The notes under the pieces: generated by a model
Told to the model about the DNA's origin: nothing
The model's input: only the letters and a program-made list of their open reading frames with translations
Databases searched by the model: none
Translations under genes and position numbers: made by a program
Source: a virus
Taxonomy: Duplodnaviria; Caudoviricetes
Strand: one strand, 5' to 3'
Length of the DNA: 64,000 bases
Virus record (IMG/VR): IMGVR_UViG_3300037067_006298
Location: 12,667-76,666 of that record
Part shown: one piece after another, positions 30,727 through 50,533 of the stretch
Numbering within the stretch: the first letter of the stretch is position 1
Layout of the letters: the number at the start of each line of letters is the position of its first letter

Positions 30727-33018
30727 TTATGCCGATACCGGAACTTGATTTTTTGCCGTGTCCTGAACAATACTTAAACTGGATTGAAGACCAAGTTTTT
30801 CCATATCTCTTGAATGTTGAAGTTGGGCATATTTCTCATCAATAGCTTTTTTGGCTTCATATAGTTTGATTTGTTCGTCTGTTTTGACTTTTTCCTCGTT
30901 CTCTAATAATTGATTTTTGAGTTGAATTGCTTCTTGTTCTCGTTGTTTATCTAAGTTCATATTGGCTTCTTGTAGTTTTTGTTGCTTCTCTTTGTTCTTT
31001 TTTGTTTTATAATTCAAAAATGCTTCAGCATATTTTAAACTACCAGACTCCAAAAGTCTTTCTATCATCAAAAAGTCAGCCAACTCAATTCCAATTATTC
31101 CATCCCTGTCCGGTGACATTGCCTTTGTCGCTGCATTAAGAATACTTACTTTCCTCTCTCTCGTGGGTTTCGCTTCATATTTGATGAAGTAATTCGCATC
31201 TACGGTATCTGCACCAACGCTTATGACCTGTACCCCGATATTGCCTATTACTGGCATATATCCTGTATAGGCTTCTTTGTCGTGTTTTATAAGCAATTGC
31301 AGTCTCAGGGATATATTCTTTGCAGTTTGTTCTTTTAAGGTTATATAAGCTCCATAAATTGAGCGTAAGGCATTATTTGTTGCTGCCATTGCGATTTCCG
31401 ATCCTCCTACTGACTGTTCAGGATTTGGAGTTGTTGCATCCGCTATTTGATTTATACCCGTGAGGTCACGAATAGCATTGGTATTAAATTCAAATATCGT
31501 GATGAACTCTCCAAGTTGCGCTCCGATGCCTCCCTTTAACTCTTCGATTGGATTACGTCCACTCGGGGTGTTCATTACTCCCTTATGAGTAGTTGCCTTC
31601 CAAATCAAATTACCGGTCTGTCTCTGTATTTTCAGAATTTCAAGAGGTTCCATCTTGTTCTTCCCAAGAGTCATGTTCTGTAAAGAGGTAAATTCGATAG
31701 CGATTCCGGGAGGTGATGCCATTGCAATAGCATTTTGCAACTTACAATAAGTTAGGGCTATCTGATGTAGGTGAGATTCTGAAAGACTTACAAGCGATCT
31801 GTAAGGTAGTTTATAAAGATGATACGATAATTCCACTTCTTTCTTACCCGGACGTGGCACGTCAAACTGTAATCCAAAATCGTACACGTGATCTGTGCCT
31901 ACTATCCATTTGCATTTATAAACAACTTTGATATCAAACTTCTCAGTCTTTTTCTTATCTGTGTTATGAACTTTTCCCCATTCCTCATCATAGGTTAATT
32001 CAGTTCCGTATTGCGTTGTGCGAGTAGTACGGTAACGACTATCTATTGAAAACCACTCACTATCCATTACATCAACAAGGAATCCATCATAAGTGCCTGA
32101 ATGAGTATCCGTGCTGTATGAGTAAGTACTCAAATCAGGATTACCGTTCATCCCTTCGTATTCCTTTGCTAATGCGAGGAGTTCTTCTTCTTTTATTTCA
32201 GGATTGAATTTACGGAGATCAGAAATAAGTACCTGAATCAACTCTCCCGCATATTCCATGTTTTTGTGATCAACCGATTTTGAGTATTGCCCGACAAAAA
32301 CTGCGGGGTCAACGTATCTTACTTTTACTTTTTTGGTGTACTGATCGGTATAGTCTTTTGTTGCTGCACAATTTATCACGCAAAGGTCTCTGATTATTTG
32401 TCTCTTTATCTCTTTCCATTCAGAGATATAAAACGTGTAATCAAGCCCCTGTTCAATCTCAATTTCCTTTGCGAGTTTAAATCCTCCGGCTCCTTCGTAT
32501 AGATTTAGTTCCTCCATACTTTCAGGAACATATTCTCCTGTGCGGTCGATGCCCATAGATTGATCTATGTAATTGAGGATTTCTTTGAACTTCATCCGGT
32601 ACTGCATATCCAATTTTGCAGATTCTTTTTCTTCCGTACTCGAAGGGTCAACTGCTGTTGCTACTACCTGGTGATCGGTTTGTTCCAACATCCCCTCTAC
32701 TACCCTTAAAAATTTTGGCATGACAGAGAATACATCCCAGTTGATATTCATGTAACCTGTCATCTTTGCATTGGGGTCTGCTACTTCGAGTAGTATTTTC
32801 TGATATTGACGTGGATCTTGTTTTCCGTCTGCTAATTCTCTTAATGAAGCAAATTCACTTACGGTAGAAAATGGTATTGCGCTTTTGCCTGTCTTCCATC
32901 TTGAATACATGGCTTCGCACCACTTCTTTCCCCATTCTTCATTTTTCTCTTTTGGATTAATGTCATCCTTTGGAAACGGATAACCTCCTTTGGTGTATTT
33001 TTCGAGCGAAACTGGCAT
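30727..33018 (-). CDS. Portal protein
   Basis: 763 aa after terL; INWDVFSVMPKFLRVVEG, KVRYVDPA, VVYKCKWIVGT blocks resemble crAss-like portals. Confidence 0.8.
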   Translation of the reverse strand: MPVSLEKYTKGGYPFPKDDINPKEKNEEWGKKWCEAMYSRWKTGKSAIPFSTVSEFASLRELADGKQDPRQYQKILLEVADPNAKMTGYMNINWDVFSVMPKFLRVVEGMLEQTDHQVVATAVDPSSTEEKESAKLDMQYRMKFKEILNYIDQSMGIDRTGEYVPESMEELNLYEGAGGFKLAKEIEIEQGLDYTFYISEWKEIKRQIIRDLCVINCAATKDYTDQYTKKVKVRYVDPAVFVGQYSKSVDHKNMEYAGELIQVLISDLRKFNPEIKEEELLALAKEYEGMNGNPDLSTYSYSTDTHSGTYDGFLVDVMDSEWFSIDSRYRTTRTTQYGTELTYDEEWGKVHNTDKKKTEKFDIKVVYKCKWIVGTDHVYDFGLQFDVPRPGKKEVELSYHLYKLPYRSLVSLSESHLHQIALTYCKLQNAIAMASPPGIAIEFTSLQNMTLGKNKMEPLEILKIQRQTGNLIWKATTHKGVMNTPSGRNPIEELKGGIGAQLGEFITIFEFNTNAIRDLTGINQIADATTPNPEQSVGGSEIAMAATNNALRSIYGAYITLKEQTAKNISLRLQLLIKHDKEAYTGYMPVIGNIGVQVISVGADTVDANYFIKYEAKPTRERKVSILNAATKAMSPDRDGIIGIELADFLMIERLLESGSLKYAEAFLNYKTKKNKEKQQKLQEANMNLDKQREQEAIQLKNQLLENEEKVKTDEQIKLYEAKKAIDEKYAQLQHSRDMEKLGLQSSLSIVQDTAKNQVPVSA

Positions 33019-33056: not shown

Positions 33057-35279
33057 TTAACTATAAGTCCTTTTCTGAAAGAAGTTGTCAAGCACATATT
33101 CCTTCTCGTTCAATTCTTCTATCTCATCATAAACTCCACGAGTCCCAAGTAATGCATATCCCCCTGCTGTGAATAAGTCATAATTAGTCATGTCTTCAGG
33201 ACCATCAATATCCCTGCACTCTTCAAGAACTTCAATATGAGTTTCAATATCCGCCTCGTTCTCAATCCATGTCATGTACTCAGTAAAAATGTCCTGTTTT
33301 ACTTTGTTTGCAGTAGTCCCGGGAGTTTTGTTTATCTCGAAAGTTTTAGGATCAATCTTAAAAAGTAGATATTCCGAATATCCTCTTTCTACAAAATAAT
33401 CCCAAAGTAACGGAACGTCTATTTCAGGGAACATCTTTACTCCATAATACACGCACATCATAAGCATATCTTCTGCATAGATATTTTTATCAAAAGTTCT
33501 CTGTGCATAGGTGCAGACAAATTTCCGTTTCATTGAAAAATCTCCGTCTCTGATTTTTCCTTTCCTTACAACGGCTCCTCCTCCTTTTGACTTTCTATTT
33601 CCCTCTGTGATATTGAATTTGAATGGGTCTCCTCCTGCTACTCCCCAATGCGTGTTTGCGGGTTCAATTAATCCATCATCATTCCTGATCCACTTATTAG
33701 ATTCACTATCATTTAATTGTTGACTGAGACGAAATTTGCCTTGCGGATTGGCAACAAAAATAACTTTGGAATCCCTGAGATTGTCTTTCCATGCAAAATT
33801 ACCTACCGCAATATCCTGTCGTGCAAAAGTCAGATTGTCAATATAGTTTTCAACTTTGTTCATATTGAACCCTGATGACTTTGATGCGGTTCTGAAACAT
33901 TCTGCAAATCGGATAGGGTATAGTCTTATGTTTTCCGATAATTTCTCTTGGTCTAACTCATACCCTTTTCGTATGTTAAGCAAATACTCGTGTGCTCCTA
34001 TTTTTCTTCCGATGTATTCCGCTTGCATTTTATTTGGTGTTCCCTTTATACTCATCCCGTACGGGTCAATGAATCCCTGTAATCCATCGTCTGCCGGAAT
34101 AAATAAGTTTGCAAGGCCTGACTTAGTTTGTCCGTTCGGGTTTCGTTCATAATACTTACTCATGTTGCACTGGTCTTTAAATGCCTTCCCTCCTCCTTTT
34201 TCCATCTCTCCTACGGTGGAAGTCTTAATGGTGAATCCGATTATATCACCTCCCATTACAAGGCATTCCTTGACTACTGCGTGTCGATCCCAACAAGAAA
34301 GTCCCTTTTTAAGTTTTCCCACCTCGTCATCATGATGAAAATATAGTTTGTCACCATCATAAGCTGACGGGTCTGCCATTTCATAATTAATACCTGATTC
34401 AAGTCCCAAGTCTGACTTTGATAATGCTCCTTTTGAAGATAGTCTGGTCGCCGGAGGTGAAAATGAAAGTTCTGTTTTCGGAGACGTTGAACCCTCGTAA
34501 CTTGGTTTAAAGAAGAAAGGCAATTTCTTCCATGGCGCAACAAGGTGTCTCAGGAAGCATTTACGAGCCTGAACATCATTCATAGACTGAATCCCTCCGA
34601 AAGCTCCCATCGTTCTGCTTATAATCTCGTAGTTGATACATTCAGCCTTGTACGTTGCTCCTTCCCTACGGTGTTTTGCATAATTGAACCCAAAGAATAG
34701 TCTTCTTCCGAAGTCAACCCATTCATATTTTCCGTCTTTGTCTCTTATGGCTTTCCCTTCTGCATCTACTCTTGGTGCCTTTGTTTCGGTGTATATTTTT
34801 CTGGCGAACAAAAAGAATCTTCGATCTCTGTCTCTGTATTTTGGTAATCCTACATCAATAAACCACCATCCGCAATAGAAGTAATGCCACCCGTCAATGT
34901 ATGTTGGTACTCCATTATTGTAGAACCAATATCCCTGAAGCCTTCGTCTCCATTGTAGGTCAATAAACTCTATCTCTTCAGAATAAATATCCTTGTGTTC
35001 CTCCAATTGTTCCCATATCTCATCCAAAGTCTCGTGCTTTGATTGGAGTTCCTTTAATCTCTTTGGTAATTTAGGTGGGTGCCACATCTGTTCCTTTGCC
35101 GGAAGTCCAAAATTATCAATAAGATGAGGTTCTGGAGGCACTGGTAATTCAATCTCTATCGGGAACAAATCTTTATCATCGGTATTGACAAACACACTCT
35201 TCTCTGCATCCTGATATTGTGACAATATTTGAGGATCAACTTCTTTATAATATCTCTTTAAGAGTGCAAGGTGGTTCAT
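33057..35279 (-). CDS. terL: Terminase large subunit
   Basis: AKHRREGAT (Walker A-like), LYFHHDDEVGK (Walker B), VAGGDPF nuclease Asp and C-terminal YDLFTAGG. Confidence 0.9.
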   Translation of the reverse strand: MNHLALLKRYYKEVDPQILSQYQDAEKSVFVNTDDKDLFPIEIELPVPPEPHLIDNFGLPAKEQMWHPPKLPKRLKELQSKHETLDEIWEQLEEHKDIYSEEIEFIDLQWRRRLQGYWFYNNGVPTYIDGWHYFYCGWWFIDVGLPKYRDRDRRFFLFARKIYTETKAPRVDAEGKAIRDKDGKYEWVDFGRRLFFGFNYAKHRREGATYKAECINYEIISRTMGAFGGIQSMNDVQARKCFLRHLVAPWKKLPFFFKPSYEGSTSPKTELSFSPPATRLSSKGALSKSDLGLESGINYEMADPSAYDGDKLYFHHDDEVGKLKKGLSCWDRHAVVKECLVMGGDIIGFTIKTSTVGEMEKGGGKAFKDQCNMSKYYERNPNGQTKSGLANLFIPADDGLQGFIDPYGMSIKGTPNKMQAEYIGRKIGAHEYLLNIRKGYELDQEKLSENIRLYPIRFAECFRTASKSSGFNMNKVENYIDNLTFARQDIAVGNFAWKDNLRDSKVIFVANPQGKFRLSQQLNDSESNKWIRNDDGLIEPANTHWGVAGGDPFKFNITEGNRKSKGGGAVVRKGKIRDGDFSMKRKFVCTYAQRTFDKNIYAEDMLMMCVYYGVKMFPEIDVPLLWDYFVERGYSEYLLFKIDPKTFEINKTPGTTANKVKQDIFTEYMTWIENEADIETHIEVLEECRDIDGPEDMTNYDLFTAGGYALLGTRGVYDEIEELNEKEYVLDNFFQKRTYS

Positions 35280-36121
35280 CTTGGAAATGTATTCTTAATT
35301 ACTTGTTCATAATTAATCGAGAATAAACTTTGCATTTTATGTTCTTCTATTGATAATTTGCTGATCCACCAATAAAACGCTTCATAAGGATCGTTAAAAA
35401 ACTTACTTATGCTTTTTCCCGCATTAATATTCTTTTCAATGGAATTAACTGTTGTTGTTACAAATCGTGGAAACATTTTATATTCTCTCATCCTTTGAGG
35501 TTGTTGTCCTAAAGGACACCCGATACATCCAAGACGATGAAATCCTTTATCATAAAAATCTGAATATGCAAGATTGTTCTTATGAATGTATGCCCATATA
35601 TCTTTAGTCGTCCAGTGCATAATAGGATATACGTGAATCTTATCCTTTATCCTTGTGTCGCAAACTTCCGGTTCTTTAAGTGCTAATAACCGCCTCCCTC
35701 TCTTTGATATTTTTTTTGATGTTTTCCCTCTTTTAGCCCAACTTATTTCTTCTTCCCTTGACTCATCAATTCTTAATCCTTCGTAAGTTTTTGCGCCCTT
35801 ACCGACATATTCTTTTAGATGTTGACAACAAAATCTGTTCTGCCGTGTTGGTAGTCCATATTTTTCAATCAATTCCCAAAAAGAATAACGAGGTTGAATG
35901 ATTTGTACATCAGGAAAATTATTTCTGATAAACGAAATATGCCCGGGAGGATCAATAGTTGTATTTTGATAACTATATGTAAAAGCAAGTCCCGTCTTTC
36001 TGGCTAATTCTTTTAAGACAACACTATCCTTACCTCCCGAAAACTGAACAATATTTTCACGTCTTGGGTCATAAAGACCAATCAGTATTTTGATACTCTG
36101 TTTTTCTAAATCTGTATTCAT
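35276..36121 (-). CDS. PAPS reductase-family (PP-loop) protein
   Basis: QFSGGKDSVVL PP-loop, RFCCQHLKE, GLRIDES, RLGCIGCP. Confidence 0.85.
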   Translation of the reverse strand: MNTDLEKQSIKILIGLYDPRRENIVQFSGGKDSVVLKELARKTGLAFTYSYQNTTIDPPGHISFIRNNFPDVQIIQPRYSFWELIEKYGLPTRQNRFCCQHLKEYVGKGAKTYEGLRIDESREEEISWAKRGKTSKKISKRGRRLLALKEPEVCDTRIKDKIHVYPIMHWTTKDIWAYIHKNNLAYSDFYDKGFHRLGCIGCPLGQQPQRMREYKMFPRFVTTTVNSIEKNINAGKSISKFFNDPYEAFYWWISKLSIEEHKMQSLFSINYEQVIKNTFPR

Positions 36122-37434
36122 CTTCCTCGTAATGTGTATCCTTCCTCGTCATGGTGACAAGTAAGTGTTTTAATAAAATATCCTTTTCTACCTGTCTGCT
36201 TCATTTCTTCGGTAAGTCTTATCCAAAGGTCTGCATCTCCCGGATTCGGTGTCCCTGTGGCCTCAAATACATCCCTATAACGTAATTTAGTGTCCGAATA
36301 CTTCACGCAAGAACTTGATGCTATCATTCCTCCCGGAACCGGATAAAACTCTTCTACTTCGTTATTAAGTGGCTTATATGGCAAGTGGACAGTATTGTAA
36401 CTTGATGCCGTGCAGACAAAAAATGGATTTTTTTCTTCAATAACCCGATTAATGAGTTCCAAATGATTGTTTCCCCATGAGTCATCGTGGTCTAAATGGC
36501 AGATATACTCAATACCATCTTTCAAAGCATGATCTATTCCTGTAATGAAAGCCGTCAATCCTCCGCTACACCACAACTTCATGTCTCCAAATTTATACTT
36601 CTCCCTTTCTACTGAATGTGGCAAGTTGATGCACGTTACATTTGGGTATGGTGTTATTATTGTTTTCAGTTCCATGTCGTTATCATAATGATCTCCTATA
36701 ACATAGACCTGAAAGTTCTTAAATGTCTGAGAATGGATGCTTGCGAGTGCCCGTCTGAGGTATGCAGGAGTCTTCCCGTCTGGTCTCTGATAGGTTGCGA
36801 TAACAACTCCTATCTTTGCTATGTTTTTTTTAAGAATGAAGCAATTACTTTCCGTAACAGTTAATGGAAATGCACCTATCTCATTTTTCATACACCCAAT
36901 AACTTCATATCTATTGCCCATACATGAGACTATGCGATCAATTGCAGGTTTTACTTCGGGACTGAACTGACTATCCATGTAATCATCAAAAACAATATAT
37001 CCTCCCGGTTTCACCATCCCTGAGTACATCTCAAAGTCCTGAGTTACATCAGTAAATGAGTGTCCTCCATCAATGAATAATATATCTATGCCTCCATGAA
37101 TACTATTTCTTATCCTGTTGACTATATTTACGTCATGTGAACTCCCCTGTATGTACTCAAACTTATTTCCGGGATAATTATGTCTTAAAACATTTGCGTA
37201 TGCGATATTTGGGCTTATTGGAGTTCCTGTATCAATGGAAAATACATTAGTCTTAGGTCTTTGAGTCATAAGACATGCGCTCGCTCCCGCATAACACCCG
37301 ATTTCTACATAATTTATTTCACCTTCATACATACTGGCAATGTCATAAAGAACATGAAAGTGATGATGAAATGTTTTTACGGTCTTGCTAATCTCTGCAA
37401 GTAGATCGAGTGACTTTTGAGAATGAATTATCAT
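36118..37434 (-). CDS. Class I SAM methyltransferase (Methyltransf_24-like) fused to a GT2-like glycosyltransferase
   Basis: VEIGCYAGAS, IDILFIDGGHS, GGYIVFDDY; then GVVIATYQR, ICHLDHDDSW (DxD). Confidence 0.8.
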   Translation of the reverse strand: MIIHSQKSLDLLAEISKTVKTFHHHFHVLYDIASMYEGEINYVEIGCYAGASACLMTQRPKTNVFSIDTGTPISPNIAYANVLRHNYPGNKFEYIQGSSHDVNIVNRIRNSIHGGIDILFIDGGHSFTDVTQDFEMYSGMVKPGGYIVFDDYMDSQFSPEVKPAIDRIVSCMGNRYEVIGCMKNEIGAFPLTVTESNCFILKKNIAKIGVVIATYQRPDGKTPAYLRRALASIHSQTFKNFQVYVIGDHYDNDMELKTIITPYPNVTCINLPHSVEREKYKFGDMKLWCSGGLTAFITGIDHALKDGIEYICHLDHDDSWGNNHLELINRVIEEKNPFFVCTASSYNTVHLPYKPLNNEVEEFYPVPGGMIASSSCVKYSDTKLRYRDVFEATGTPNPGDADLWIRLTEEMKQTGRKGYFIKTLTCHHDEEGYTLRGR

Positions 37435-38159
37435 ATAAATTGTAATATTGTTTGTGATTTAAAATTAGCAAATCTCTTTTCTTCTTTATCAAAATAAGAT
37501 TTATCTATCTCAAAACCAATAAAGTTAATTTCTGATTTATATGCAGCTATTCTATTAGAACCACTTCCCAGATGAGTATCAATAACCCACATCCCACTTT
37601 CCCCAAATTCTTTATACATCAAATCATAAATTAATACAGGTTTTTGAGTTGGATGTATTCTTTTTTCATTGAGTTTTTTGTTTCCTTGTTGTATCATTGG
37701 TTCTTTTAAACTTTTGGCTTGCATCATTCCCGCCCAAAGAAGTGGTACTGTTATTTCATAATCAATAAAACTACAATAAGCAACTTCATATCTATTAAAA
37801 CTTACTCCATCGGCGACTCCTTTGTCCCATCTAATCCTTCCGTTTCCTAACCCTGTCCAATTTACAAATTCAACTCCAAAAATTATTTGATGTCTACTGA
37901 TTCTTAAAAGTTCATCAAAGTATTCCTGTCCCGGGACTTCTTTATCCCAATCTTTTAATTCATAAGGTACTTTATTTCTATTTCCATTCAATCTTGTTCC
38001 ATTCTTCTGCTTTACGGTTGTGTTCATTTCTTTTAAAAATGGCATGTTTGCAACATCTTTCCCATAAGGTATGTCACAAACAGCAATATCAAATTGTTTG
38101 TCTTTAAAAGAATATATTTTATTTCTATAATCTTCATTATAGACTATACTGGTTAACAT
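37431..38159 (-). CDS. N6A/N4C DNA methyltransferase (beta class) with a DIPY variant motif
   Basis: IAVCDIPYG (motif IV), IHPTQKP, DTHLGSGS (motif I). Confidence 0.8.
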   Translation of the reverse strand: MLTSIVYNEDYRNKIYSFKDKQFDIAVCDIPYGKDVANMPFLKEMNTTVKQKNGTRLNGNRNKVPYELKDWDKEVPGQEYFDELLRISRHQIIFGVEFVNWTGLGNGRIRWDKGVADGVSFNRYEVAYCSFIDYEITVPLLWAGMMQAKSLKEPMIQQGNKKLNEKRIHPTQKPVLIYDLMYKEFGESGMWVIDTHLGSGSNRIAAYKSEINFIGFEIDKSYFDKEEKRFANFKSQTILQFI

Positions 38160-38857
38160 ATTATTGTTTTGTAATTACAGGTTTTTGTTTGATTGAAAAT
38201 ATTGGGATTGTTTTTTCTAAACTCATAATACGGATGCCCTTTCTGGTAGTAATCCCACGTCAGATGATATGCCTTTGCACCCTTTGTTTTTACCCATCTT
38301 AATCCCTTAGATGCACATGCCATACGAAAATCATCATCTATTGAACGGGGTGCATTAAAGAGAATGTCAAGGTCTTTATTTTGAAGTGTCATCAAATGTG
38401 CTCCACTATCACACCAGATATAATCTTTGGTTACTTGTTTTGCTCTCGGAATCCAATCGGAAGGTTTTGCAATATGATGTGGAAAATTGCTCATATTCAA
38501 ATCTACCGTGCATACCCCTACTTCCGGGTGTTGAAGTATCTGCCAAATCTCCTGAAATGTATTTGCCGTATTATTTACAAGCAAGTCTGCATCAGTAAAA
38601 GTGATATAAGGATATTGTCTTATTAATGGTTGAAAGTCTCTCAGGAATATCTTAACTGCGTTATCCGCTATATTTTCCTCGAACTGAATATATCCTTTTA
38701 GTCTTTGTTGAATTAAAAATGCCTCTATCTGTGGACTGTTTGGACTCTTGTTTTCAACAATGAAGTAATCCTTGTTGTCCATGTACATACTCTCGAAACA
38801 CTTTGCAATATGTTCGTGGTTATTATAACACCATAATATGCAAAGATGATTATTCAT
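38153..38857 (-). CDS. Glycosyltransferase, GT-A fold
   Basis: ILWCYNN, YITFTDADLL (DxD). Confidence 0.6.
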   Translation of the reverse strand: MNNHLCILWCYNNHEHIAKCFESMYMDNKDYFIVENKSPNSPQIEAFLIQQRLKGYIQFEENIADNAVKIFLRDFQPLIRQYPYITFTDADLLVNNTANTFQEIWQILQHPEVGVCTVDLNMSNFPHHIAKPSDWIPRAKQVTKDYIWCDSGAHLMTLQNKDLDILFNAPRSIDDDFRMACASKGLRWVKTKGAKAYHLTWDYYQKGHPYYEFRKNNPNIFNQTKTCNYKTIIC

Positions 38858-39492
38858 TTACGATGATAATTTGGCACGATAACCCTGTCTGTGTTGTTAC
38901 ACGTCAGAAGTTCATTGCTTCCAATATTCACGTCAACTGTTACTCCCGCATGCACGGCACTATCGTTTCCGATATTTATGTGAGGTACCACCGATGATCT
39001 TATGCCAAAGAAGTTCCGATCTCCTATTGTGCAATGTCCGCATACGATTGTTGCGGATAATATATTATGATTTCCTACGGTGCAGTCATGCCCGATGTCG
39101 CACCAGGGAGTAAGGTAATTGAAGTCACCAAGTTTCACATTTGCCCCGATTAGCGACCATGCTCCTACAATGTTTCCCTCTCCCTTTATCTCTGACTGAA
39201 CAATACAAGATGAATGGATGACATTTGGAAATTTGGCTCCCTTTGCCTTCATTATAGCAACTACCTTTTGCCGGAAGTCAATATGTGTCATCCCAAGAAC
39301 AAATACATCATCTGGCCCCGGACGATAATTGTCGATAGTTCCAAGTATGGGATACTTCTGAAGATTGTCGTACTGCTTGTAGTATTTCCCGATGTTCTCA
39401 GGATATTCCAAGAATCCCAAGATGCCTTCAGGAAACAAACTCATTATTTCTGATACGGCACCACCTGTGCCAATTATGATTATATTATTCAT
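38854..39492 (-). CDS. NeuD/PglD-like sugar acyltransferase (left-handed beta-helix)
   Basis: Start MNNIIIIGTGG at 39492, coupled to the degT-like stop; hexapeptide repeats IGHDCTVG, IGDRNFFG. Confidence 0.85.
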   Translation of the reverse strand: MNNIIIIGTGGAVSEIMSLFPEGILGFLEYPENIGKYYKQYDNLQKYPILGTIDNYRPGPDDVFVLGMTHIDFRQKVVAIMKAKGAKFPNVIHSSCIVQSEIKGEGNIVGAWSLIGANVKLGDFNYLTPWCDIGHDCTVGNHNILSATIVCGHCTIGDRNFFGIRSSVVPHINIGNDSAVHAGVTVDVNIGSNELLTCNNTDRVIVPNYHRK

Positions 39493-40129
39493 GTTGTGTA
39501 TAAATTTTGTGTTTACTGAGGTCGGGGTACGGTAACTCGATGTCCGGCATTTGTTTTTTTGTACCATTAACGTTATAAAACTTCGCCATATTGAGAAGTC
39601 CAAGAGATGCAATCATTGGATTCATGTAAAAGTTATAACCAATCATCTTAAAAGAATCCTGAACAAGATAACCGCACTCCTCTCTTCCTGAGAAACGAGC
39701 CTTTTTAAACCACACATAAGCATCATAATTATCAGTTAAAATACACCCTCCCTTCCCCAGATTCAAGTGCTTATAAGCTCCTGTGAATGAACAACACATA
39801 TAGGTATCTGGTAAGTACATATCCCCTGTGAATCTGAGTGCGGAATCCCATACTTTGCTTCCAAGTAACGGATACGCTCCTTTCAAATATCCATCTACAC
39901 TTCCTGTTGGTTTATAGAACTTTACATTTCCTCCTGCATGTATGATTTCGCACGGAATTGACGGATAGGTATAGCAAGGTATAACGATATCCTTCCCTTT
40001 GATGTTATCATACATCAACGCAAGGAATATAGCATTGCTTTGATTATCTACCGTTACACAATATGGTGCTCCGGTGTATTTGCATATTTCCTCCTCAAAA
40101 GCCCTTGTTACTTCATGCACGTTGTTCAT
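39485..40129 (-). CDS. Short DegT/DnrJ/EryC1/StrS-family PLP aminotransferase
   Basis: FEEEICKYTGAPYCVTVDN, WDSA (PLP Asp), SFTGAYK (PLP Lys), GGCILTD; only 214 aa. Confidence 0.8.
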   Translation of the reverse strand: MNNVHEVTRAFEEEICKYTGAPYCVTVDNQSNAIFLALMYDNIKGKDIVIPCYTYPSIPCEIIHAGGNVKFYKPTGSVDGYLKGAYPLLGSKVWDSALRFTGDMYLPDTYMCCSFTGAYKHLNLGKGGCILTDNYDAYVWFKKARFSGREECGYLVQDSFKMIGYNFYMNPMIASLGLLNMAKFYNVNGTKKQMPDIELPYPDLSKHKIYTQHE

Positions 40130-40349
40130 AGCATTTCTTTATTTCGTTTTCGATTAACTTAAAACTTATCAAATTTCCTACTGCCTCGTCCGGGATTATT
40201 ATGTCAAACTCCCTTTCCAGAAATACAATCATCTGTACGTGATGTATGGAATCCCAATTTGAGGTATTATCCATATTGGACTGATCGGTTATTTTCTCAA
40301 TAGGCATCTCGAATACCCTTGCCATAACCTTTTTTATTCTCTCATTCAT
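40113..40349 (-). CDS. Acyl carrier protein
   Basis: 78 aa, acidic; WDSIHHVQMIVFLEREF phosphopantetheine Ser motif. Confidence 0.9.
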   Translation of the reverse strand: MNERIKKVMARVFEMPIEKITDQSNMDNTSNWDSIHHVQMIVFLEREFDIIIPDEAVGNLISFKLIENEIKKCYEQRA

Positions 40350-41316
40350 AACGGAAGTATTTTGCTGCGTGTGGTTTGTAGTCGTTACTATTTATTGTGA
40401 ATATACTTTTATCATCTGTAAAGTTAAATCCAAGTTTCGGATAAAAGTCTGCCACCTGTCCATTTTTTGATGTCGGGACATAAATACCTAAAACTAATGT
40501 ATCTGATTTTCGTTTCTTGTAGTCTTTCATTATCTTGTCTATAAAGGCATATTCAATGCCTCTGCCAAGTATCCGACAACTTAACAAGAATATATCTATA
40601 ACTCCATGATATATTGCACATACTCCTGTCAATCCATTATCTCCAAACTTATCCTTTACCGACAAGGTATATACATATCCAGACGCCATGAATCTCTTTA
40701 TATTATCCTCATTACAACGATGGGATGTCAAGTTGAATTGATTTGTCTTTTGAGTAAGTTCCACAATACGTGGGATGTGTTTCGATTCATTGACCTCTAT
40801 TTTGAGCACCATGTCAAGAGATGCAAGGTATTCATTGATGTCCGTGAATTGTTCCTTTGCTTTCGCTCTCTGGTAGTTCTCCTTGTACTGTTGGGTCTTT
40901 GTGAAATTTCCTTTGAGGTCAAAATTATCCAAAACAACTCTCGTTAACTCTTGGGGAGTGATTGTCATTACTTCCGGCAACTGTTTCTTTACAAGTTCCC
41001 TTTCAAATTCAGAATCATCTACAAATACTATCGCATCCAACCCGACATTAAGTTCTTCTGCAATCTCTTTCAGATTCGATGCCTTGTCGTTCCAATTAAT
41101 GCGTTTTACAGAGATATATTTCTCGGTCAATAACTGATCTTTCATTGCCTCTATCACGTCTGTTTCATTGTTCTTGCTACACAATCCAATGATTACACCA
41201 TGATTTGCAAAGAATATAATATCTTGCTGCAGGTCGGTGTCGTGTTTTATTTCTTCTTCTCCAACAATCCCTTTCCATAGGGTGTTATCGCAATCAAAGA
41301 TTATTGCTTTTTTCAT
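40342..41316 (-). CDS. fkbH: FkbH-like glyceryl-ACP synthase (HAD-IIIC + GNAT)
   Basis: IIFDCDNTLWKG, LCSKN, VFVDDSEFER, KTNQFNLT, DKFGDNG, FLLSCRILGRGIE. Confidence 0.9.
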   Translation of the reverse strand: MKKAIIFDCDNTLWKGIVGEEEIKHDTDLQQDIIFFANHGVIIGLCSKNNETDVIEAMKDQLLTEKYISVKRINWNDKASNLKEIAEELNVGLDAIVFVDDSEFERELVKKQLPEVMTITPQELTRVVLDNFDLKGNFTKTQQYKENYQRAKAKEQFTDINEYLASLDMVLKIEVNESKHIPRIVELTQKTNQFNLTSHRCNEDNIKRFMASGYVYTLSVKDKFGDNGLTGVCAIYHGVIDIFLLSCRILGRGIEYAFIDKIMKDYKKRKSDTLVLGIYVPTSKNGQVADFYPKLGFNFTDDKSIFTINSNDYKPHAAKYFRYE

Positions 41317-41705
41317 TCCTTACATTTTACTAATGAAGTACTACTTAATACCATTACTCCGTGTTGATTATGTATGTTTATTCCAAGTTTTATCTGATTA
41401 AACTTTGGCATTTTATCCATTACTTGAGCCTCTATGGTTAACTCATCGTTCACATAGACAGGACTCAAAAAAGACATATTCTGTCTTACCCAAATTGCTC
41501 CATCTCCCGGCAAATGCATTCCTATCATTGTAGAAATAAAAGATGCCACTAACATACCGTGAACAATAGCATTTTCTCCAAAGTGTATAGAATTAGTATC
41601 GCCTGTAATTGCTACAAATGTATAGACGTCAGAGGCGTATATAGCAACTTTTTTGGACATTTTTTGTCCAATTTTAATTTCTTCGTACTTCATAGCATCC
41701 TCCAT
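41313..41705 (-). CDS. MaoC-like (R)-specific enoyl hydratase/dehydratase
   Basis: FVAITGDTNSIH, IVHGML, LPGDG hotdog-fold motifs. Confidence 0.85.
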   Translation of the reverse strand: MEDAMKYEEIKIGQKMSKKVAIYASDVYTFVAITGDTNSIHFGENAIVHGMLVASFISTMIGMHLPGDGAIWVRQNMSFLSPVYVNDELTIEAQVMDKMPKFNQIKLGINIHNQHGVMVLSSTSLVKCKE

Positions 41706-42646
41706 AGATTTGCTCCAAAATTGAATCCTGCTCCAACACCTACAAGCATAAGTAAATCGCCTGACTTTATGAGTTTTTTATTTACAGCCTCATCAAGTGC
41801 TATTCCAATACTTGCTGCACCGGTGTTTCCTATCTCGTCAACATTGATGTATGACTTCTCTCGAGGTATTCTCATCTTGTCAAGGATATACTCATTAAGC
41901 ACCTTGTTTGCCTGATGAAAGATAAAAAAATCAATCTCACCAATGCTAAGATTTTCCTCTTTGAGAAGTTCTTTTATTGAATATGGCATATTGGTTACTG
42001 CCATCGTCCAAGTCTTGTGTCCTTCGTGTTCAATTAGTCCTCCTTTTTTTAATCGGGTGTCCTCGTAATAGGTTGAATCGGTACAAAAGAATGAATTGAT
42101 ATGCCCAATGCCGTACGGTGTCCTTCCAAGCAATATCCCTGATGCTCCATCACTGAAAAATGGTGCCGAATATTTATCTGTCTTGTCAGTTAGTCTCGAT
42201 AGTATCTCTACTCCGATGACAATGGCATATTTTATCTTCTGGTTTCTTCGCATGGTATCTACTGCAATATCGGATGCAGTAATGAGTCCGGTGCATACTC
42301 CGTTTACATCTATTACTTCACAATGTTTTGGACCTCCTATTGCCTGATGTATCTTTGCAGACATTGGAGGAAACACATAATCCTGACTGAAAGAGGCAAT
42401 CATAATGAGTCCTATTTCTTTCGGGTCTATGTGTGGAAATCCGTCTTTGAGTAATAACTTCTTTGCCACGATAGTTGCCATAGAAGATGCCGTCTCTCCC
42501 TCTGATACATAATACCTGCGTTTTATGCCAAGTTTTGACATTATCCATTCCTCTGTCATTCCGGGAACATTCTGACATACTTCCTTATTGGTGTTGATGT
42601 TGTTGGGCAAATAACTTGCCGTTTTGATTATTCCTATTCCGTTCAT
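41690..42646 (-). CDS. fabH: 3-oxoacyl-ACP synthase III
   Basis: DVNGVCTG (Cys), FHQAN (His), GNTGAASI (Asn): full catalytic triad. Confidence 0.9.
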   Translation of the reverse strand: MNGIGIIKTASYLPNNINTNKEVCQNVPGMTEEWIMSKLGIKRRYYVSEGETASSMATIVAKKLLLKDGFPHIDPKEIGLIMIASFSQDYVFPPMSAKIHQAIGGPKHCEVIDVNGVCTGLITASDIAVDTMRRNQKIKYAIVIGVEILSRLTDKTDKYSAPFFSDGASGILLGRTPYGIGHINSFFCTDSTYYEDTRLKKGGLIEHEGHKTWTMAVTNMPYSIKELLKEENLSIGEIDFFIFHQANKVLNEYILDKMRIPREKSYINVDEIGNTGAASIGIALDEAVNKKLIKSGDLLMLVGVGAGFNFGANLWRML

Positions 42647-42650
42647 ATTA

Positions 42651-43160
42651 TTATTTTAAAAGTTCAATATTCTCATAAATATTACCAATAACAAACGGAG
42701 AATAAAATTTTTGAATATCCGAATCAAAACATCTCGATAAAAGTCCCCATCTATTAAATTTATTTTTACAATAAAATGCCCCGTCCTCAAAATAAACAGT
42801 CATCGGGCCATTTTCCTTAGACATTGCGATTAAAATATCCCCTTCGTATATTTCTTTGCCATTCTTGTCTTTCAACCCTGTAAATTCAACTACTTCGTAT
42901 TCGTCTGAATAATTAAGAGACCTTGTTGCTAAATCATCAATTGGAAGTAATCCAATTATTTGACCGTCAATAGTAAAAAATACACATTTGCCTTGAATGC
43001 GATTACATTCTTTACCGTCTTCGGAAAATTCAAATTTGTTATCAAAAAACTGGTTAGGTTTTCCATTAGTGTAAACTCCTTTCTGCCAATCATACGGATA
43101 TACTTTTAAGAAAGCTCCAGTTTCTTTATGCCATAATTTAAACCTATGTTCTCGTTTCAT
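42651..43160 (-). CDS. YopX-family phage protein
   Basis: EFTGLKDKNGKEIYEGDIL...VIGNIYENIELL. Confidence 0.85.
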   Translation of the reverse strand: MKREHRFKLWHKETGAFLKVYPYDWQKGVYTNGKPNQFFDNKFEFSEDGKECNRIQGKCVFFTIDGQIIGLLPIDDLATRSLNYSDEYEVVEFTGLKDKNGKEIYEGDILIAMSKENGPMTVYFEDGAFYCKNKFNRWGLLSRCFDSDIQKFYSPFVIGNIYENIELLK

Positions 43161-43861
43161 TTATGAAGTCCTCCAAGATAAATTGTTTGCGAAGTAATAT
43201 AACCTGATTTTTCTGAGCAAAAGAAGTCAATGACATTAGTTATGTCGTCAATGGTTGCTTTGCGTGGTATTGGGAATGTCTTAACTAACGCATCCACCGT
43301 CTCCGGCTTGTGTTGTGCAAGCATATCCGTATCAATAGCCGATATTGCAAGGGTGTTACAAGTTATGTTCTGACGTGCATACTCTTTTGCAAGGATATTT
43401 GTCATAGTTTTCAGTCCGGCTTTGCAAGCTGCATACACACTGTCTCCCATTGCCTCGCACACATCCGCAATTGAACCGATGTTTATTATTCTGCCATAAG
43501 GGATGTCGTACATGAGTTTTGATGCCTCCCTGCACACCAAAAACGGTGCGAGTAAATCCACCATTATCATTTGATATGCATCAAATCCAGGCATTTTCTG
43601 TGAGAATCTGGAAGACATAATGGCTGCATTGTTGATACAAATATCAATTTCTGAGGTAAGTGCTTTTATCTCAGAAAATACTTTTTCTATTTCTATTGGC
43701 ATTGATAAATTAACTGCATAATGACGATAATTTATGTCATCCTGAACTTCACTTCCACTTATGCCTATTACTTTTGCATTATGGGCAAGGAAATGTTCTG
43801 CAATACTTCTTCCAACACCTCTACTTGTTCCTGTTATTAAAACTGTTTTTTCGTTGTACAT
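43157..43861 (-). CDS. fabG: SDR oxidoreductase, 3-oxoacyl-ACP reductase-like
   Basis: TGTSRGVG, INNAA, YAACK. Confidence 0.85.
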   Translation of the reverse strand: MYNEKTVLITGTSRGVGRSIAEHFLAHNAKVIGISGSEVQDDINYRHYAVNLSMPIEIEKVFSEIKALTSEIDICINNAAIMSSRFSQKMPGFDAYQMIMVDLLAPFLVCREASKLMYDIPYGRIINIGSIADVCEAMGDSVYAACKAGLKTMTNILAKEYARQNITCNTLAISAIDTDMLAQHKPETVDALVKTFPIPRKATIDDITNVIDFFCSEKSGYITSQTIYLGGLHK

Positions 43862-43863
43862 AA

Positions 43864-44073
43864 TTATTGATTTAGAATATTTGGGAACACTGAAATTAAT
43901 TCACCTATTCTCGGATGGTTTTCAGGATACATCCATCCTTTCGGTAGTGGATTTTTTGCCCTGAACTCCCATTTGTTTTTTTCTTTTACAAGTTCTGTAA
44001 TAACTGATAAAAAAACTTCTTCCCTTTTTGTCTTTGCTTTCATGTCATTTGTATTTAATGGGAAATATTGCAT
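43864..44073 (-). CDS. Hypothetical protein
   Basis: Small ORF filling the gap in the operon; likely start MKAKTKRE. Confidence 0.45.
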   Translation of the reverse strand: MQYFPLNTNDMKAKTKREEVFLSVITELVKEKNKWEFRAKNPLPKGWMYPENHPRIGELISVFPNILNQ

Positions 44074-44665
44074 CTCCCGGCTCCACGTGAGGTGCTGAAT
44101 AAAAATTTGGTTTGCCCATATATATCCATTGTTCTGCTAAAAAACGATTAGTATGATTGAGTTCACTTATTGGAGGACATCTATTGATATACTCCCTTCG
44201 GAACCACCAGAAATTACCAGAGAAATGATTTGGGGACTTCAGATAACCAATGGAGGACACATCATAACCATTCTCTACCCTATCTCTATGTTCCTGATAG
44301 CGATTTATCAGTTGCTCATTCATCATTGATCTCCAATGATTTATAGGTACTTCAAATGGTCTGGTTACTGCTTTGGTGTGGAAATATAATCCTACATACT
44401 GTGAGTCATCTGCCTCGATTAGCCTGAGTGTAGGAAACTCGTAGTCCTCTGGTCTGTTTGAGTAATATTTGATTTTTAACTTCGGGTACACGTTAACAAA
44501 ATACTTTTCAAGAAAGGCTTTCTGGTCTGGCGCACCAATGCACCCAATGTTTATTTCCTCACATTCGTCATAAAGTCCTGACGTAAGTAATATGCGCATT
44601 TGATCTGTAATTACCGTGTACCAATGCGATACCATCCAAATATGCCAAAACACTTTTGCTGTCAT
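44045..44665 (-). CDS. Putative glycosyltransferase-like protein (viral family)
   Basis: LYFHTKAVT...HWRSMM...HFSGNFWW...AEQWI pattern, recalled from viral glycan clusters. Confidence 0.5.
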   Translation of the reverse strand: MTAKVFWHIWMVSHWYTVITDQMRILLTSGLYDECEEINIGCIGAPDQKAFLEKYFVNVYPKLKIKYYSNRPEDYEFPTLRLIEADDSQYVGLYFHTKAVTRPFEVPINHWRSMMNEQLINRYQEHRDRVENGYDVSSIGYLKSPNHFSGNFWWFRREYINRCPPISELNHTNRFLAEQWIYMGKPNFYSAPHVEPGDAIFPIKYK

Positions 44666-45354
44666 TTGTTTTCTTCTTTAAATGCTGGTTCTCCGTTCTG
44701 TGCCCTCTTTGCAAAGTCCTCCGGTCTGAGTGCAATTCTTTCGTCCTCCAAGCAACGAAGCATTTCGTCTTTCAGATAGGGATTTGAGTCTTGGTTGAGC
44801 ATTTCCAAAAGATTCTCTTCCAAATTATCCCTTAGTTCTGCAAGTTTAGAAATGCTTTTTGTTTCTCCTGACTGTATTTCGAGCATGAGATTGCAATAGG
44901 CAGTCTCAATACTGATTTGATATGCGTACTTGTACGACCTATGGAGCATAACATATTGGCAAATCTTCTGATTAACCACCTTATTTTTCCCCTTTAGAAA
45001 ATCTTCAACTACCGGTTCAAACACTCCTCCTCCTTCTACTTTGAAATCACAATCGTGTGCTACTTCAATTTTCCTCTTTAGTACATCAGAATATTTTCTG
45101 CGATATGGAGAATGAGCATCATACATACATAACACGTATTGCATCACCTTGGTATTGTCAAGACTTTCTCCCGGATTTGCTCTGAACTCTTTTATTTTTC
45201 CAAGGTCCTTGTAGAATTTAAGAATATCCGTACCGTCTGGTACTTTTGTCGGATCGAATCTCATTTGAGAATACTCCTTCGGATGGAACTGCCCTTTCAT
45301 AATATCCAATTTATATACGGTTTGCCTTCGTAATTTCTGTCCCATACAAACCAT
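44662..45354 (-). CDS. Possible terminase small subunit
   Basis: Helical protein with a YVLCMYDAHSPY motif at the head of the packaging operon; assignment mostly positional. Confidence 0.35.
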   Translation of the reverse strand: MVCMGQKLRRQTVYKLDIMKGQFHPKEYSQMRFDPTKVPDGTDILKFYKDLGKIKEFRANPGESLDNTKVMQYVLCMYDAHSPYRRKYSDVLKRKIEVAHDCDFKVEGGGVFEPVVEDFLKGKNKVVNQKICQYVMLHRSYKYAYQISIETAYCNLMLEIQSGETKSISKLAELRDNLEENLLEMLNQDSNPYLKDEMLRCLEDERIALRPEDFAKRAQNGEPAFKEENK

Positions 45355-45884
45355 GCAAACGGAATCATACCTCCGTTCTTGTGAGTGCCTGCATGTATCC
45401 CAAAATTTACACGCTTACTGAATTGATAAACGCATTTCAGGGGAAATTTCTTATCCTGAAACATCTCATATCTCTTTGCTCCTTCAAGGAAGGCGGTTTT
45501 CAGAAACATTGCTATTTTAATCTGAGAATATTGTTTTGCTTGAAAAACAAATTCCAATGCAAGGTCGAATGGAGGATTTGTTATTATGTTATCCACGGCA
45601 GGGAATGGTGCCGAAAATACTGAGTTATCATTTAAGAAATCTATATCCGGAACACCGTATCCATAGTTGTTAAGGTCCGAACTTTTGACATCATATCCTT
45701 GTTCAATAAGAACTTTTGATATATCTCCCATGCCACAGGCAGGTTCCCATACACTCCCCTCAAATTTTTCATGTAGCAATAATGCTTTTGTTGCACTTGG
45801 AGGTGTCGGATAAAAATCTGCCTTGGATCTTCCAAGCCGACTATTATCGCCTGCTATCTTTCTAGCTGTATCTACTGAACTCAT
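45297..45884 (-). CDS. Amino (N6A-type) DNA methyltransferase
   Basis: DFYPTP, WEPACGMG (motif I), IITNPPF (motif IV). Confidence 0.8.
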   Translation of the reverse strand: MSSVDTARKIAGDNSRLGRSKADFYPTPPSATKALLLHEKFEGSVWEPACGMGDISKVLIEQGYDVKSSDLNNYGYGVPDIDFLNDNSVFSAPFPAVDNIITNPPFDLALEFVFQAKQYSQIKIAMFLKTAFLEGAKRYEMFQDKKFPLKCVYQFSKRVNFGIHAGTHKNGGMIPFAWFVWDRNYEGKPYINWIL

Positions 45885-49666: not shown

Positions 49667-50533
49667 TTATATTTTATTTTTCATACAGAACTCGTCTATC
49701 CGATTAAAAAGTTCGATATCTTCATCGTGTAGTCTCATCCGAACACGAGCCATATTGCCCCTATCCGTCTTTGTTGTGCCCCAATAATGGGTGTATTTTC
49801 GCTTGAAATTCTGTCCTGCTTTTATCGCATCACGGTTAATAACCTTGACCTCTGATCTTAGATTATGCGCCTTAATAAGTGATGCAGCGAAGTATTGTTC
49901 GTGGAATAAGTTCTGGTGTATTATGACTGACCCGTACTTCTTAAAGAACAACTTTTGGTTCTCCGGTGCGAAGATATACTCCTCACTACACCTCCTCCAC
50001 TCCTGAAAGAACTCCAAGTCATGCCCTCCACAGATGCCACAGTTATATGCGAAGTCATGTATCGGATTATCAACAATAATTTGTGGTTTTACGGGTGCTT
50101 TATCGAAGCACGGACGGAGTAGGTTGTAGTAATGATACCCGACTTTATCCATCGGCTCCCAGCTCTGGAAGCACAACCGGGCTTTAAGTATCTTCGGAGC
50201 GAGTGCATCCCAAAGAAACACGTCATTGTCAATATGTACAAACGGTTCTTTTTGTTCACAGTAAGCGAGTAGTTTCCCGTATGCCCAAAAGAACCGGGAC
50301 ACGGATTTCATCTCGTTTAGCTTATTGGAATAACTTGTAATTGGAAGTCCAAGAGGTTTGATCACATCAACACCCCAATCAGAAGAAATAAACTGCACCT
50401 CCTTAAAGTGTCGGGAGGCGCAGAGTATTGAGAGTGCAGTGGTAAAAAGAAAATCACTGTATTTGTTGAACCCACATCTATTGCCGAAGTCTTCATCTGG
50501 GTTAAAATATGAGAGAACTGCTTTCTTTATCAT
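49667..50533 (-). CDS. DUF6734-like putative glycosyltransferase (GT-A)
   Basis: FWAYGKLLAYCEQKEPFVHIDNDVFLW (DxD), YNCGICGG, EQYF. Confidence 0.65.
   Translation of the reverse strand: MIKKAVLSYFNPDEDFGNRCGFNKYSDFLFTTALSILCASRHFKEVQFISSDWGVDVIKPLGLPITSYSNKLNEMKSVSRFFWAYGKLLAYCEQKEPFVHIDNDVFLWDALAPKILKARLCFQSWEPMDKVGYHYYNLLRPCFDKAPVKPQIIVDNPIHDFAYNCGICGGHDLEFFQEWRRCSEEYIFAPENQKLFFKKYGSVIIHQNLFHEQYFAASLIKAHNLRSEVKVINRDAIKAGQNFKRKYTHYWGTTKTDRGNMARVRMRLHDEDIELFNRIDEFCMKNKI

Follow-up and report, generated by a model that had tools for sequence, protein, structure and literature searches.

Virion glycosylation is well documented in giant viruses, and some mycobacteriophages glycosylate their capsids and tail tubes; to our knowledge, glycosylation of phage virions is limited to some mycobacteriophages, which use simple sugars. 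It is established for polyketide pathways that FkbH enzymes take a glyceryl unit from 1,3-bisphosphoglycerate and attach it to a dedicated acyl carrier protein (ACP). Loading modules of the dehydratase-ketoreductase-FkbH-ACP (DH-KR-FkbH-ACP) type have been proposed to yield lactyl-ACP, and FkbH, a dedicated ACP, and a FabH-like enzyme together form the core of tetronate cassettes. The antABCD genes of Bacillus anthracis encode an enoyl-CoA hydratase, a glycosyltransferase (GT), a DegT aminotransferase, and a hexapeptide N-acyltransferase, which make anthrose, a 2-O-methyl, N-(hydroxyacyl) 4-amino-4,6-dideoxyhexose that caps the protein-bound BclA glycan. The structure of anthrose is quoted in a paper that also covers the PBCV-1 protein A064R, a GT-GT-methyltransferase fusion that works on the capsid glycan, and the production of 2-O-methyl-N-acetyl-viosamine by Mimivirus (PMC9614988). 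The GT genes of mycobacteriophages adjoin structural genes (PMC11256854). The flagellin of Campylobacter jejuni bears an N-(2,3-di-O-methylglyceroyl) sugar (PMC3068675), and the flagellin glycosylation locus includes an FkbH-domain gene, cj1302 (PMC7099621), which we would connect with the glyceroyl group.

Here we analyze a gene cluster with an ACP-dependent acyl module, an amino-sugar module, and GTs in a 64,000-nucleotide stretch of phage DNA (the window), which comprises bases 12667-76666 of the 76,666-bp IMG/VR virus record IMGVR_UViG_3300037067_006298. The parts are known already, namely, the FkbH, FabH, DegT, and PglD families and virus-encoded glycosylation. An earlier note on this DNA had been aware of no characterized phage pathway of this kind, and our literature search likewise found no paper describing one. 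The search also returned no phage FkbH/ACP clusters, no crAss-like phages with ACP or aminotransferase genes, and no recombining glycan island between crAss-like packaging genes. We find that this phage lineage has a glycan island that is hypervariable and recombines and that the cluster is one of its alleles. We assign a probability of about 0.5 to the reading that this island, part of a late operon, makes an ACP-derived N-acyl amino-deoxyhexose glycan whose acceptor is probably virion proteins.

Results

A phage-encoded acyl and amino-sugar cluster in the packaging operon

The cluster runs from 44665 to 36118 on the minus strand, between a gene for a 212-aa protein and the TerL side of the packaging operon. 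As the earlier note had read from the sequence, it encodes FabG, FabH, MaoC, FkbH, ACP, DegT, and NeuD/PglD-type proteins and a methyltransferase (MT)-GT fusion (Table 1), and the "two or three GTs" of that account correspond to a DUF8361 protein with a GT-A fold and a 234-aa GT2-like candidate. Three interspersed genes had been left out, encoding a YopX-family protein, an N6/N4 DNA methylase, and a PAPS-reductase-family protein. The note had placed the cluster between terS and terL; the TerL assignment is borne out by phrog_6681, whereas terS is a candidate by position only. Neighboring genes overlap by 4 to 17 nt almost throughout, from 44665 to the TerL start at 35279, as had been claimed of the start and stop codons, and the sole breaks in this chain are two few-base spacers, by the 69-aa open reading frame (ORF) and the YopX gene. 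The region from ~46.9 kb to TerL has no intergenic gap.

The same gene order, joined to TerL, is present in independent IMG/VR, NCBI, Logan, and ENA assemblies (loci L003, L004, L005, L006, L009, L027, L104, and L105). The junctions of the cluster recur in at least 8 independent assemblies, and the stop codon of the MT-GT2 gene overlaps the TerL start in L003, L004, L005, L006, L009, L027, and L104. One FkbH variant is present on at least 24 contigs, mostly of ~72 kb, and short phage-type FkbH proteins make up 66 protein clusters with 49 to 87% identity in a large protein collection. The source record has direct terminal repeats and a CheckV completeness of 100%, and because it is a complete virus record with terminal repeats, the cluster is not a host chimera. 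GC content is 0.33 to 0.42 across the window and even, with no step at the cluster. The claim that an ACP-dependent acyl, amino-sugar, and GT cluster is genuinely encoded by a phage, within its packaging operon, therefore stands, and the arrangement is conserved across independent assemblies.

The cluster is one allele of a hypervariable island

The main point about the cluster, which the earlier note had missed, emerges from comparison with related loci, of which we retrieved 78 from IMG/VR by a search with TerL. Their conserved backbone consists of a 233-aa gene, the 212-aa gene, TerL, the portal gene, and a 406-aa gene. The 212-aa gene and TerL touch or overlap in 18 loci (gap of -34 to +6 nt) and are separated by an insert of 0.9 to 8.6 kb in ~20 others; the insert measures 9.4 kb in this phage and 12.4 kb in L002/L045. 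The inserts vary in gene set, yet nearly all of their genes are sugar-pathway genes, and a DUF8361 GT-A gene leads nearly every island. Other alleles carry genes for GT2, GT10, GT11, GT25, RmlD, a PseB/CapD-type 4,6-dehydratase, FdtA, and GNAT proteins, along with FkbM and other methyltransferases, sugar C- and O-methyltransferases, and a B12-radical-SAM enzyme. Up to 7-8 GTs are found in relatives, including members of the fucosyltransferase families GT10 and GT11.

In a TerL tree, all islands of at least 3 kb fall within one 19-row clade with support of 100/99. An island is present in 17 of the 19 rows of this clade and in 0 of the 10 rows of its sister clade. Island types are mixed within the clade, with at least 2 changes for the FkbH type and at least 4 for the dehydratase/DegT type. 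Since the island types do not follow the TerL tree, we conclude that cassettes have been exchanged.

The closest relative, L027, has a TerL 96% identical to that of this phage, and in it no other gene lies between the GT2-like gene and the MT-GT2 fusion or between the fusion and TerL. In L027, L003, L005, and L009, no DNA methylase gene separates the GT2-like gene from the MT-GT2 fusion, and the PAPS-reductase gene is missing in L027 and in every other FkbH-type relative. Given that both are missing in L027, these two genes are recent passengers here. YopX, which is missing at this position in L003, L005, L009, and L104, is likewise a passenger that lies outside the pathway and arrived recently. 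The position of the 69-aa ORF is taken by an 87-aa gene in L005 and by nothing in L003, and the 234-aa gene is kept in L003, L005, L009, and L027.

Three further observations concern the alleles of relatives. In L052 (positions 758-2832), a GT2-like 195-aa gene and a DUF8361 gene lie upstream of a DUF6734 gene rather than between the 212-aa gene and TerL, which indicates that the island has moved. Alleles with a B12-binding radical-SAM protein and an NDP-hexose C-methyltransferase-type (Methyltransf_14) protein (L055:6347-7552, L057:5303-6511, and L073:7475-8695) point to C-methylated sugars. A GIY-YIG/NUMOD homing endonuclease gene is located on the left edge of the allele in L091 (4706-5458), and the enzyme may drive cassette exchange.

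Enzymes of the cluster

The earlier note had judged the active-site motifs intact where it could check them, and our structural alignments and homolog comparisons agree. Catalytic motifs are conserved in up to eight phage homologs at 55 to 80% identity, and all frames are open. FkbH scores 239.7 bits against TIGR01686 (cutoff of 146.65), with residues 2-301 aligned to profile positions 3-323; its HAD motif DCDNTLW (D-x-D-N-T-L-W) and an invariant C247 within S-C-R were found across 27 homologs. In the loci examined, the ACP gene always directly follows the FkbH gene. The DS(I/L) serine motif of the ACP is conserved in phage homologs, and its PP-binding and NCBIfam matches (the latter at ~1e-9) are all under their cutoffs. 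The Cys-His-Asn triad of FabH aligns with that of 2ebd, its HQAN motif is conserved, and it reaches 236 bits against NF006829 (cutoff of 249). The FabG-like protein, at 153 bits against TIGR01830, falls below the equivalog cutoff of 297.75 and is a classical short-chain dehydrogenase/reductase (SDR) with YxxxK; the motif, here YAACK, is kept in 7 phage homologs. The GDxNxxH motif of MaoC is kept in 6. The PglD-like protein matches TIGR03570 at 2.4e-31 and 108.9 bits (cutoff of 160.8), spanning residues 4-197 on profile positions 2-197 of 202, and its IGHDC motif is conserved.

For the 206-aa DUF8361 protein, an AlphaFold2 model with a pLDDT of 90 has a GT-A fold, with VIA Z scores of 12 to 14 to the GlcNAc-T domain of heparosan synthase, ArnC, GtrB, and DPMS and an Atlas TM score of 0.92 to a viral DUF8361 cluster. 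A sequence profile search of the PDB with this protein returned noise only, the GT-A placement having come from the fold search, and PF27674 is matched weakly by a homolog. GT-A domains of the DUF8361 family also occur in fusions, with GT17 in giant viruses and with GT34 in phages. The 234-aa protein has an Atlas feature score of 0.98 to GT2-bearing clusters; it has no Pfam, NCBIfam, or PHROG match, and its AlphaFold2 model, built from a 4-row alignment, is poor (pLDDT of 44). At the border of the island, the ORF of the 212-aa gene is open to 45354, with M19 as the likely start, and the Atlas entry begins at residue 19. Searches with this protein in Pfam, PHROG, Atlas features, and the PDB (22-row profile) gave no match, and the case for TerS is made solely by the conserved place of the gene directly upstream of TerL in relatives.

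Table 1. Genes of the glycan island and its borders, in the order of transcription
Feature	Position in window	Strand	Evidence or family match
212-aa protein, island left border	44662..45300	-	TerS candidate from position only
GT-A-fold glycosyltransferase-like protein, DUF8361, 206 aa	44045..44665	-	Structure model and fold search
69-aa ORF, varies between relatives	43864..44073	-	No family match
FabG-like SDR ketoreductase	43157..43861	-	adh_short_C2 7e-36
YopX-family phage protein	42651..43160	-	PF09643 2.8e-16
FabH (KAS III) condensing enzyme	41690..42646	-	PF08545 and PF08541, both KAS III domains
MaoC-type (R)-hydratase/dehydratase	41313..41705	-	PF01575 1.3e-12
FkbH-family HAD-IIIC enzyme, predicted glyceryl-ACP loader	40342..41316	-	TIGR01686
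Dedicated acyl carrier protein	40113..40349	-	PP-binding 1e-3
Miniature DegT-family PLP enzyme, 214 aa, predicted sugar aminotransferase	39485..40129	-	PF01041
NeuD/PglD-like hexapeptide N-acyltransferase, 212 aa from internal ATG	38854..39492	-	Hexapep matches
234-aa GT2-like glycosyltransferase candidate	38153..38857	-	Language-model features
N6/N4 DNA methyltransferase	37431..38159	-	PF01555 2.8e-11
Methyltransf_24/CmcI (sugar-O-methyltransferase-like) and GT2 fusion	36118..37434	-	PF13578 5.4e-16, PF04989 7.9e-9, PF00535 2.3e-8
PAPS-reductase-family gene, cluster/TerL boundary	35276..36121	-	PF01507 3.7e-21, phrog_424
TerL, island right border	33057..35279	-	phrog_6681 2.5e-73
Portal protein	30727..33018	-	phrog_6547 1.7e-70

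A miniature DegT family

The DegT assignment of the earlier note holds for the family and for the lysine that binds pyridoxal phosphate (PLP) but not for the full-length fold. The protein scores 61.5 bits against PF01041 (gathering cutoff of 19.8). In its SFTGAYK motif, the lysine matches the PLP lysine of 8vr3 in an alignment and is shared by 8 phage homologs; the preceding aspartate is also kept. The full two-domain DegT fold of ~360 to 400 aa is absent: the miniature protein has no C-terminal domain and is missing a segment in the middle and, at the N terminus, ~30 residues. A search for its family gave 5,586 matches, and the best 120 of these (P0121-P0240; 62 to 89% identity) are nearly all 206 to 223 aa long. 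Most of the best 120 are on short metagenome contigs and a few are on contigs of 75 to 87 kb; a few have been binned into metagenome-assembled genomes (MAGs) of Omnitrophota or Phycisphaerae. These 206- to 223-aa proteins are a stable, very large family, and no description of a miniature DegT family was found in our literature search. The 214-aa protein may be a minimal PLP sugar aminotransferase, and if so, it would give enzymology a minimal example of this class.

The acyl cassette in other genomes

A comparable cassette is present on a Bacteroidales-type contig (L007/L008), which carries genes for Bac_transf, PglD, ACP, FabG, FabH, a glyoxalase-fold protein, a 525-aa FkbH, a second ACP, a metallo-β-lactamase (MBL)-fold protein, and a full DegT. 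Capsule-type GT genes, an EpsG-family gene, and acyltransferase genes surround it. The short, 324-aa phage FkbH is ~45% identical to the 525-aa bacterial form. A 152-kb virus-like contig (L106:6401-15771) encodes FabG, FabH, a methyltransferase, MaoC, FkbH, ACP, GNAT, a full-length DegT, FdtA, GTs (GT2s), and DUF8361; the contig also has genes for a thymidylate synthase and a sigma factor, and many of its ORFs are small and unannotated. The presence of the cassette with other partners in this contig indicates that the acyl module is mobile and couples to differing amino-sugar modules. Wherever the cassette was examined, in phages and in bacteria, amino-sugar and GT genes accompany it. No biochemical study of the FkbH/ACP cassette in a glycan setting was found in the literature search. 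Separately, we noted that the cassette in L106 is followed by a gene for an 837-aa polysaccharide-deacetylase protein and that FkbH-like domains (~30% identity) occur inside very long ORFs on contigs labeled as giant-virus MAGs and on large virus contigs (L011 and L016-L021).

A predicted pathway to an N-acylated amino sugar

No phosphopantetheinyl transferase (PPTase) or nucleoside diphosphate (NDP)-sugar dehydratase gene was found in the whole 76.7-kb genome, which extends what the earlier note had stated for the window; as both are missing from the phage, the host must supply them. In relatives, the gene of the same miniature DegT stands beside one for a Polysacc_synt_2 dehydratase, in some cases also with FdtA, and this neighborhood fixes the pathway as one of the type that leads from an NDP-4-keto-6-deoxyhexose to an amino sugar. 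From the enzyme set, we infer the substrates, step order, acyl structure, and acceptor of the following scheme. A host PPTase would prime the phage ACP, and FkbH would then put a glycerate-derived C3 unit on it. MaoC, the FabG-like reductase, and FabH would tailor and possibly extend this unit to a short hydroxy-acyl-ACP. FabH could contribute a C2 unit, and glyceroyl, lactyl, and C5 hydroxy-acyl groups are all possible products. An NDP-4-keto-6-deoxyhexose made by a host 4,6-dehydratase would be aminated by the miniature DegT, and the PglD-like transferase would move the ACP-borne acyl group to the amine, the use of acyl-ACP being suggested by the gene context. The last steps would fall to three soluble GT-A-type transferases and the fused O-methyltransferase, which would build a short methylated glycan, with one or more virion proteins as the predicted acceptor, glycosylated in the cytoplasm during assembly.

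Genome setting

Every gene from ~47 kb down to 1 kb of the window is carried on the minus strand. Virion structural genes follow the portal gene and include a weak match to an SU10-type major capsid protein (MCP) and a tail protein with a Fib_succ_major domain; a match to the C-terminal domain of the crAss muzzle protein (crAss_MUZ_C) is also weak, at 24.1 bits against a cutoff of 27. The closest cultured relatives by TerL, at 28 to 32% identity, are Flavobacteriia podophages that infect Flavobacterium, Cellulophaga, Maribacter, and Tenacibaculum. We class the phage tentatively as crAss-like, in a lineage with genomes of ~75 kb. It is apparently lytic. A search for a tyrosine integrase found none in the genome, serine recombinases lying outside the search, and lysogenic conversion is unlikely because no tyrosine integrase was found.

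Two observations concern other genes of the window. A DUF6734 protein encoded at 49667-50533 (139 bits) is kept upstream in many relatives, with an island or without one. A virion protein with fn3 and Fibrobacter succinogenes major paralogous domains and a 615-aa Ser/Thr-rich protein with DUF2341 (18365-20332 and 24684-26531) may be host-binding or decoration proteins and, as such, candidate glycan acceptors.

Target of the glycan

The earlier note had offered virion proteins, DNA, and the host surface as possible targets, and the evidence leans toward virion proteins and away from DNA. The virion is the most likely acceptor because the island is packed into a late operon with TerL, its proteins are soluble, and it varies in the manner of a serotype locus. 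None of the island proteins has a predicted transmembrane segment, and no lipid-carrier, flippase, or polymerase genes were found in the island. The three GT-A-type genes belong to the chain of overlapping genes that leads into TerL. The tyrosine integrase search, which found none, the fusions of DUF8361 to GT17 and GT34, the chlorovirus, mimivirus, and mycobacteriophage precedents, and the protein-linked N-acyl amino sugars on C. jejuni flagellin and, as anthrose, on BclA all point the same way. Taken together, we give virion proteins an even chance of being the target.

Several points weigh against this reading and the pathway behind it. Some 40% of a normal DegT is missing from the miniature protein, which may be something other than an aminotransferase. 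The matches of the PglD-like, FabG, and ACP proteins are under NCBIfam equivalog cutoffs, and the evidence for the second GT (234 aa) is similarity in a language model. Late expression is deduced from gene packing. A scan for sigma-70 promoters and terminators over 32.5-47.5 kb, which did not cover Bacteroidota promoters, gave counts not above those of shuffled sequences. No acceptor was identified in a comparison of the portal, the 406-aa protein, the putative MCP, and a 364-aa protein, and these four head proteins are alike in length and Ser/Thr content between island and island-free phages. Solubility is also compatible with a host-envelope target, as GTs that act on lipid-linked acceptors often lack transmembrane segments, and the methylases and the DndC-type PAPS reductase in and around the island fit a DNA-protection hot spot.

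If the modified NDP-sugar were instead used by peripheral GTs on the undecaprenyl-linked O-antigen, capsule, or protein-glycan intermediates of the host, the island would serve to remodel the host envelope. Such a role would suit the nearest bacterial counterpart of the cassette, which has an initiating Bac_transf gene as its neighbor in a capsule-type locus, and the diversity of the island, which resembles that of O-antigens and capsules; many GTs with lipid-linked acceptors are, moreover, soluble or peripheral. However, the island encodes no initiating phosphoglycosyltransferase, flippase, polymerase, ligase, or Gtr-type membrane protein and not a single predicted transmembrane segment. The search for a tyrosine integrase, which found none, leaves the phage without a setting for lysogenic conversion, and a place in the late packaging operon leaves scant time for rebuilding an envelope. 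We regard envelope remodeling, which could serve to block superinfection or to stop progeny from sticking to debris, as unlikely.

Slightly more doubtful still is a role in DNA hypermodification, in which phage DNA would receive the acyl-amino-sugar or glycan ahead of packaging and so evade restriction or CRISPR. The cluster is immediately upstream of TerL, and a PAPS-reductase/DndC-family gene and three DNA methyltransferase genes are found in or just upstream of the island (35276-36121, 37431-38159, 45297-45884, and 50869-51444), but the methylase and the PAPS reductase are missing from the closest relatives. The complete genome has no match to PF00303 (thymidylate synthase/hydroxymethylase) or PF01702 (tRNA-guanine transglycosylase [TGT]/DpdA), and hence the known entry points to sugar-bearing bases are absent. 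The 7-8 GTs reached in relatives imply oligosaccharides larger than any known DNA modification, and in giant viruses DUF8361 is fused to GT families that act on proteins or glycans.

It is very improbable that the cluster makes a small molecule, that is, a free and possibly glycosylated metabolite from a tetronate-type or polyketide-like cassette. The FkbH/ACP/FabH trio, which the earlier note had likened to tetronate cassettes, is present, but no polyketide synthase (PKS), acyl supplier, or further tetronate gene was found among the Pfam-scanned ORFs of the island, and FabH resembles a canonical KAS III. The cassette is constantly accompanied by amino-sugar and GT genes, and the same set stands beside PglD and DegT in the Bacteroidales capsule-type locus. 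With the trio present and its partner genes not, we rejected the tetronate reading. An assembly chimera or decaying, functionless cargo is scarcely credible for this metagenome-derived genome, given its terminal repeats and completeness, the uniform GC content over the region, the same junctions in at least 8 independent assemblies, and frames that are all open with catalytic motifs kept at 55 to 80% identity.

Discussion

The gene content and variation of the island suggest a broader model, which we put forward tentatively and at somewhat less than even odds. In this model, the terminase genes of lytic, crAss-like Bacteroidota phages flank a recombining "serotype locus" whose products coat the virion with strain-specific O-methylated glycans; in the phage studied here, the amino sugar would be N-acylated with a glycerate-derived chain from a host-primed phage ACP. 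If true, no other acyl-sugar pathway that depends on a carrier protein would be known to decorate virus particles before this one, and the island would be the first sign that phage-particle glycans undergo antigenic variation like that of bacterial surfaces. Abundant uncultured phages of Bacteroidota would then build complex, variable glycans themselves, with acylated amino, fucose-type, and C-methyl sugars, which would matter for the stability and adhesion of phages, for their recognition by the immune system, and for competition among them. The compact, all-soluble enzyme set is a tractable entry to the FkbH/ACP acyl cassettes that are widespread in bacterial glycan loci. Were the target DNA or the host envelope instead, the cluster would still encode a new kind of phage-encoded modification.

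Among known systems, the phages that hypermodify their DNA (glucosylated hydroxymethylcytosine in T-even phages and thymidine hypermodification in ViI, M6, and related phages) share with the island phage the placement of transferase genes beside DNA-metabolism or packaging genes. They differ in that the island phage has several GT-A enzymes rather than the GT-B DNA glucosyltransferases, and no thymidylate synthase homolog or TGT was found in it. The FkbH/OzmB loaders of polyketide pathways (methoxymalonyl-ACP and tetronates) likewise have an FkbH-domain protein with a dedicated ACP, and the separate MaoC and FabG proteins of the phage parallel the DH and KR domains of DH-KR-FkbH-ACP loading modules. 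The phage, however, has no PKS, and its product is predicted to be amide linked to a sugar.

The chlorovirus, Mimivirus, and mycobacteriophage systems resemble the island in their soluble, virus-encoded GTs, and GT-methyltransferase fusions occur there too. Giant viruses also have amino-sugar enzymes, such as those of the viosamine and bacillosamine pathways in Mimivirus, with methylated 4-amino-4,6-dideoxyhexoses among their products (PMC9614988). An ACP-dependent acyl module was not found in the literature on these viruses, whose hosts are eukaryotes or Actinobacteria; virion glycosylation is documented in them and predicted for the island phage. Compared with the island, anthrose draws its acyl donor from a metabolic CoA thioester instead of a chain built by FkbH and FabH on a dedicated ACP, and its pathway is bacterial.

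The Bacteroidales locus (L007/L008) has in common with the phage cluster an FkbH gene followed by a small ACP gene, FabG, FabH, a PglD-type acyltransferase, and DegT. The phage has one ACP where the bacterium has two, its FkbH is short and its DegT miniature, and MaoC stands in place of the bacterial glyoxalase and MBL genes. The phage cluster also does without Bac_transf or any other membrane gene, and unlike its bacterial counterpart, it sits in the packaging operon of an apparently lytic phage.

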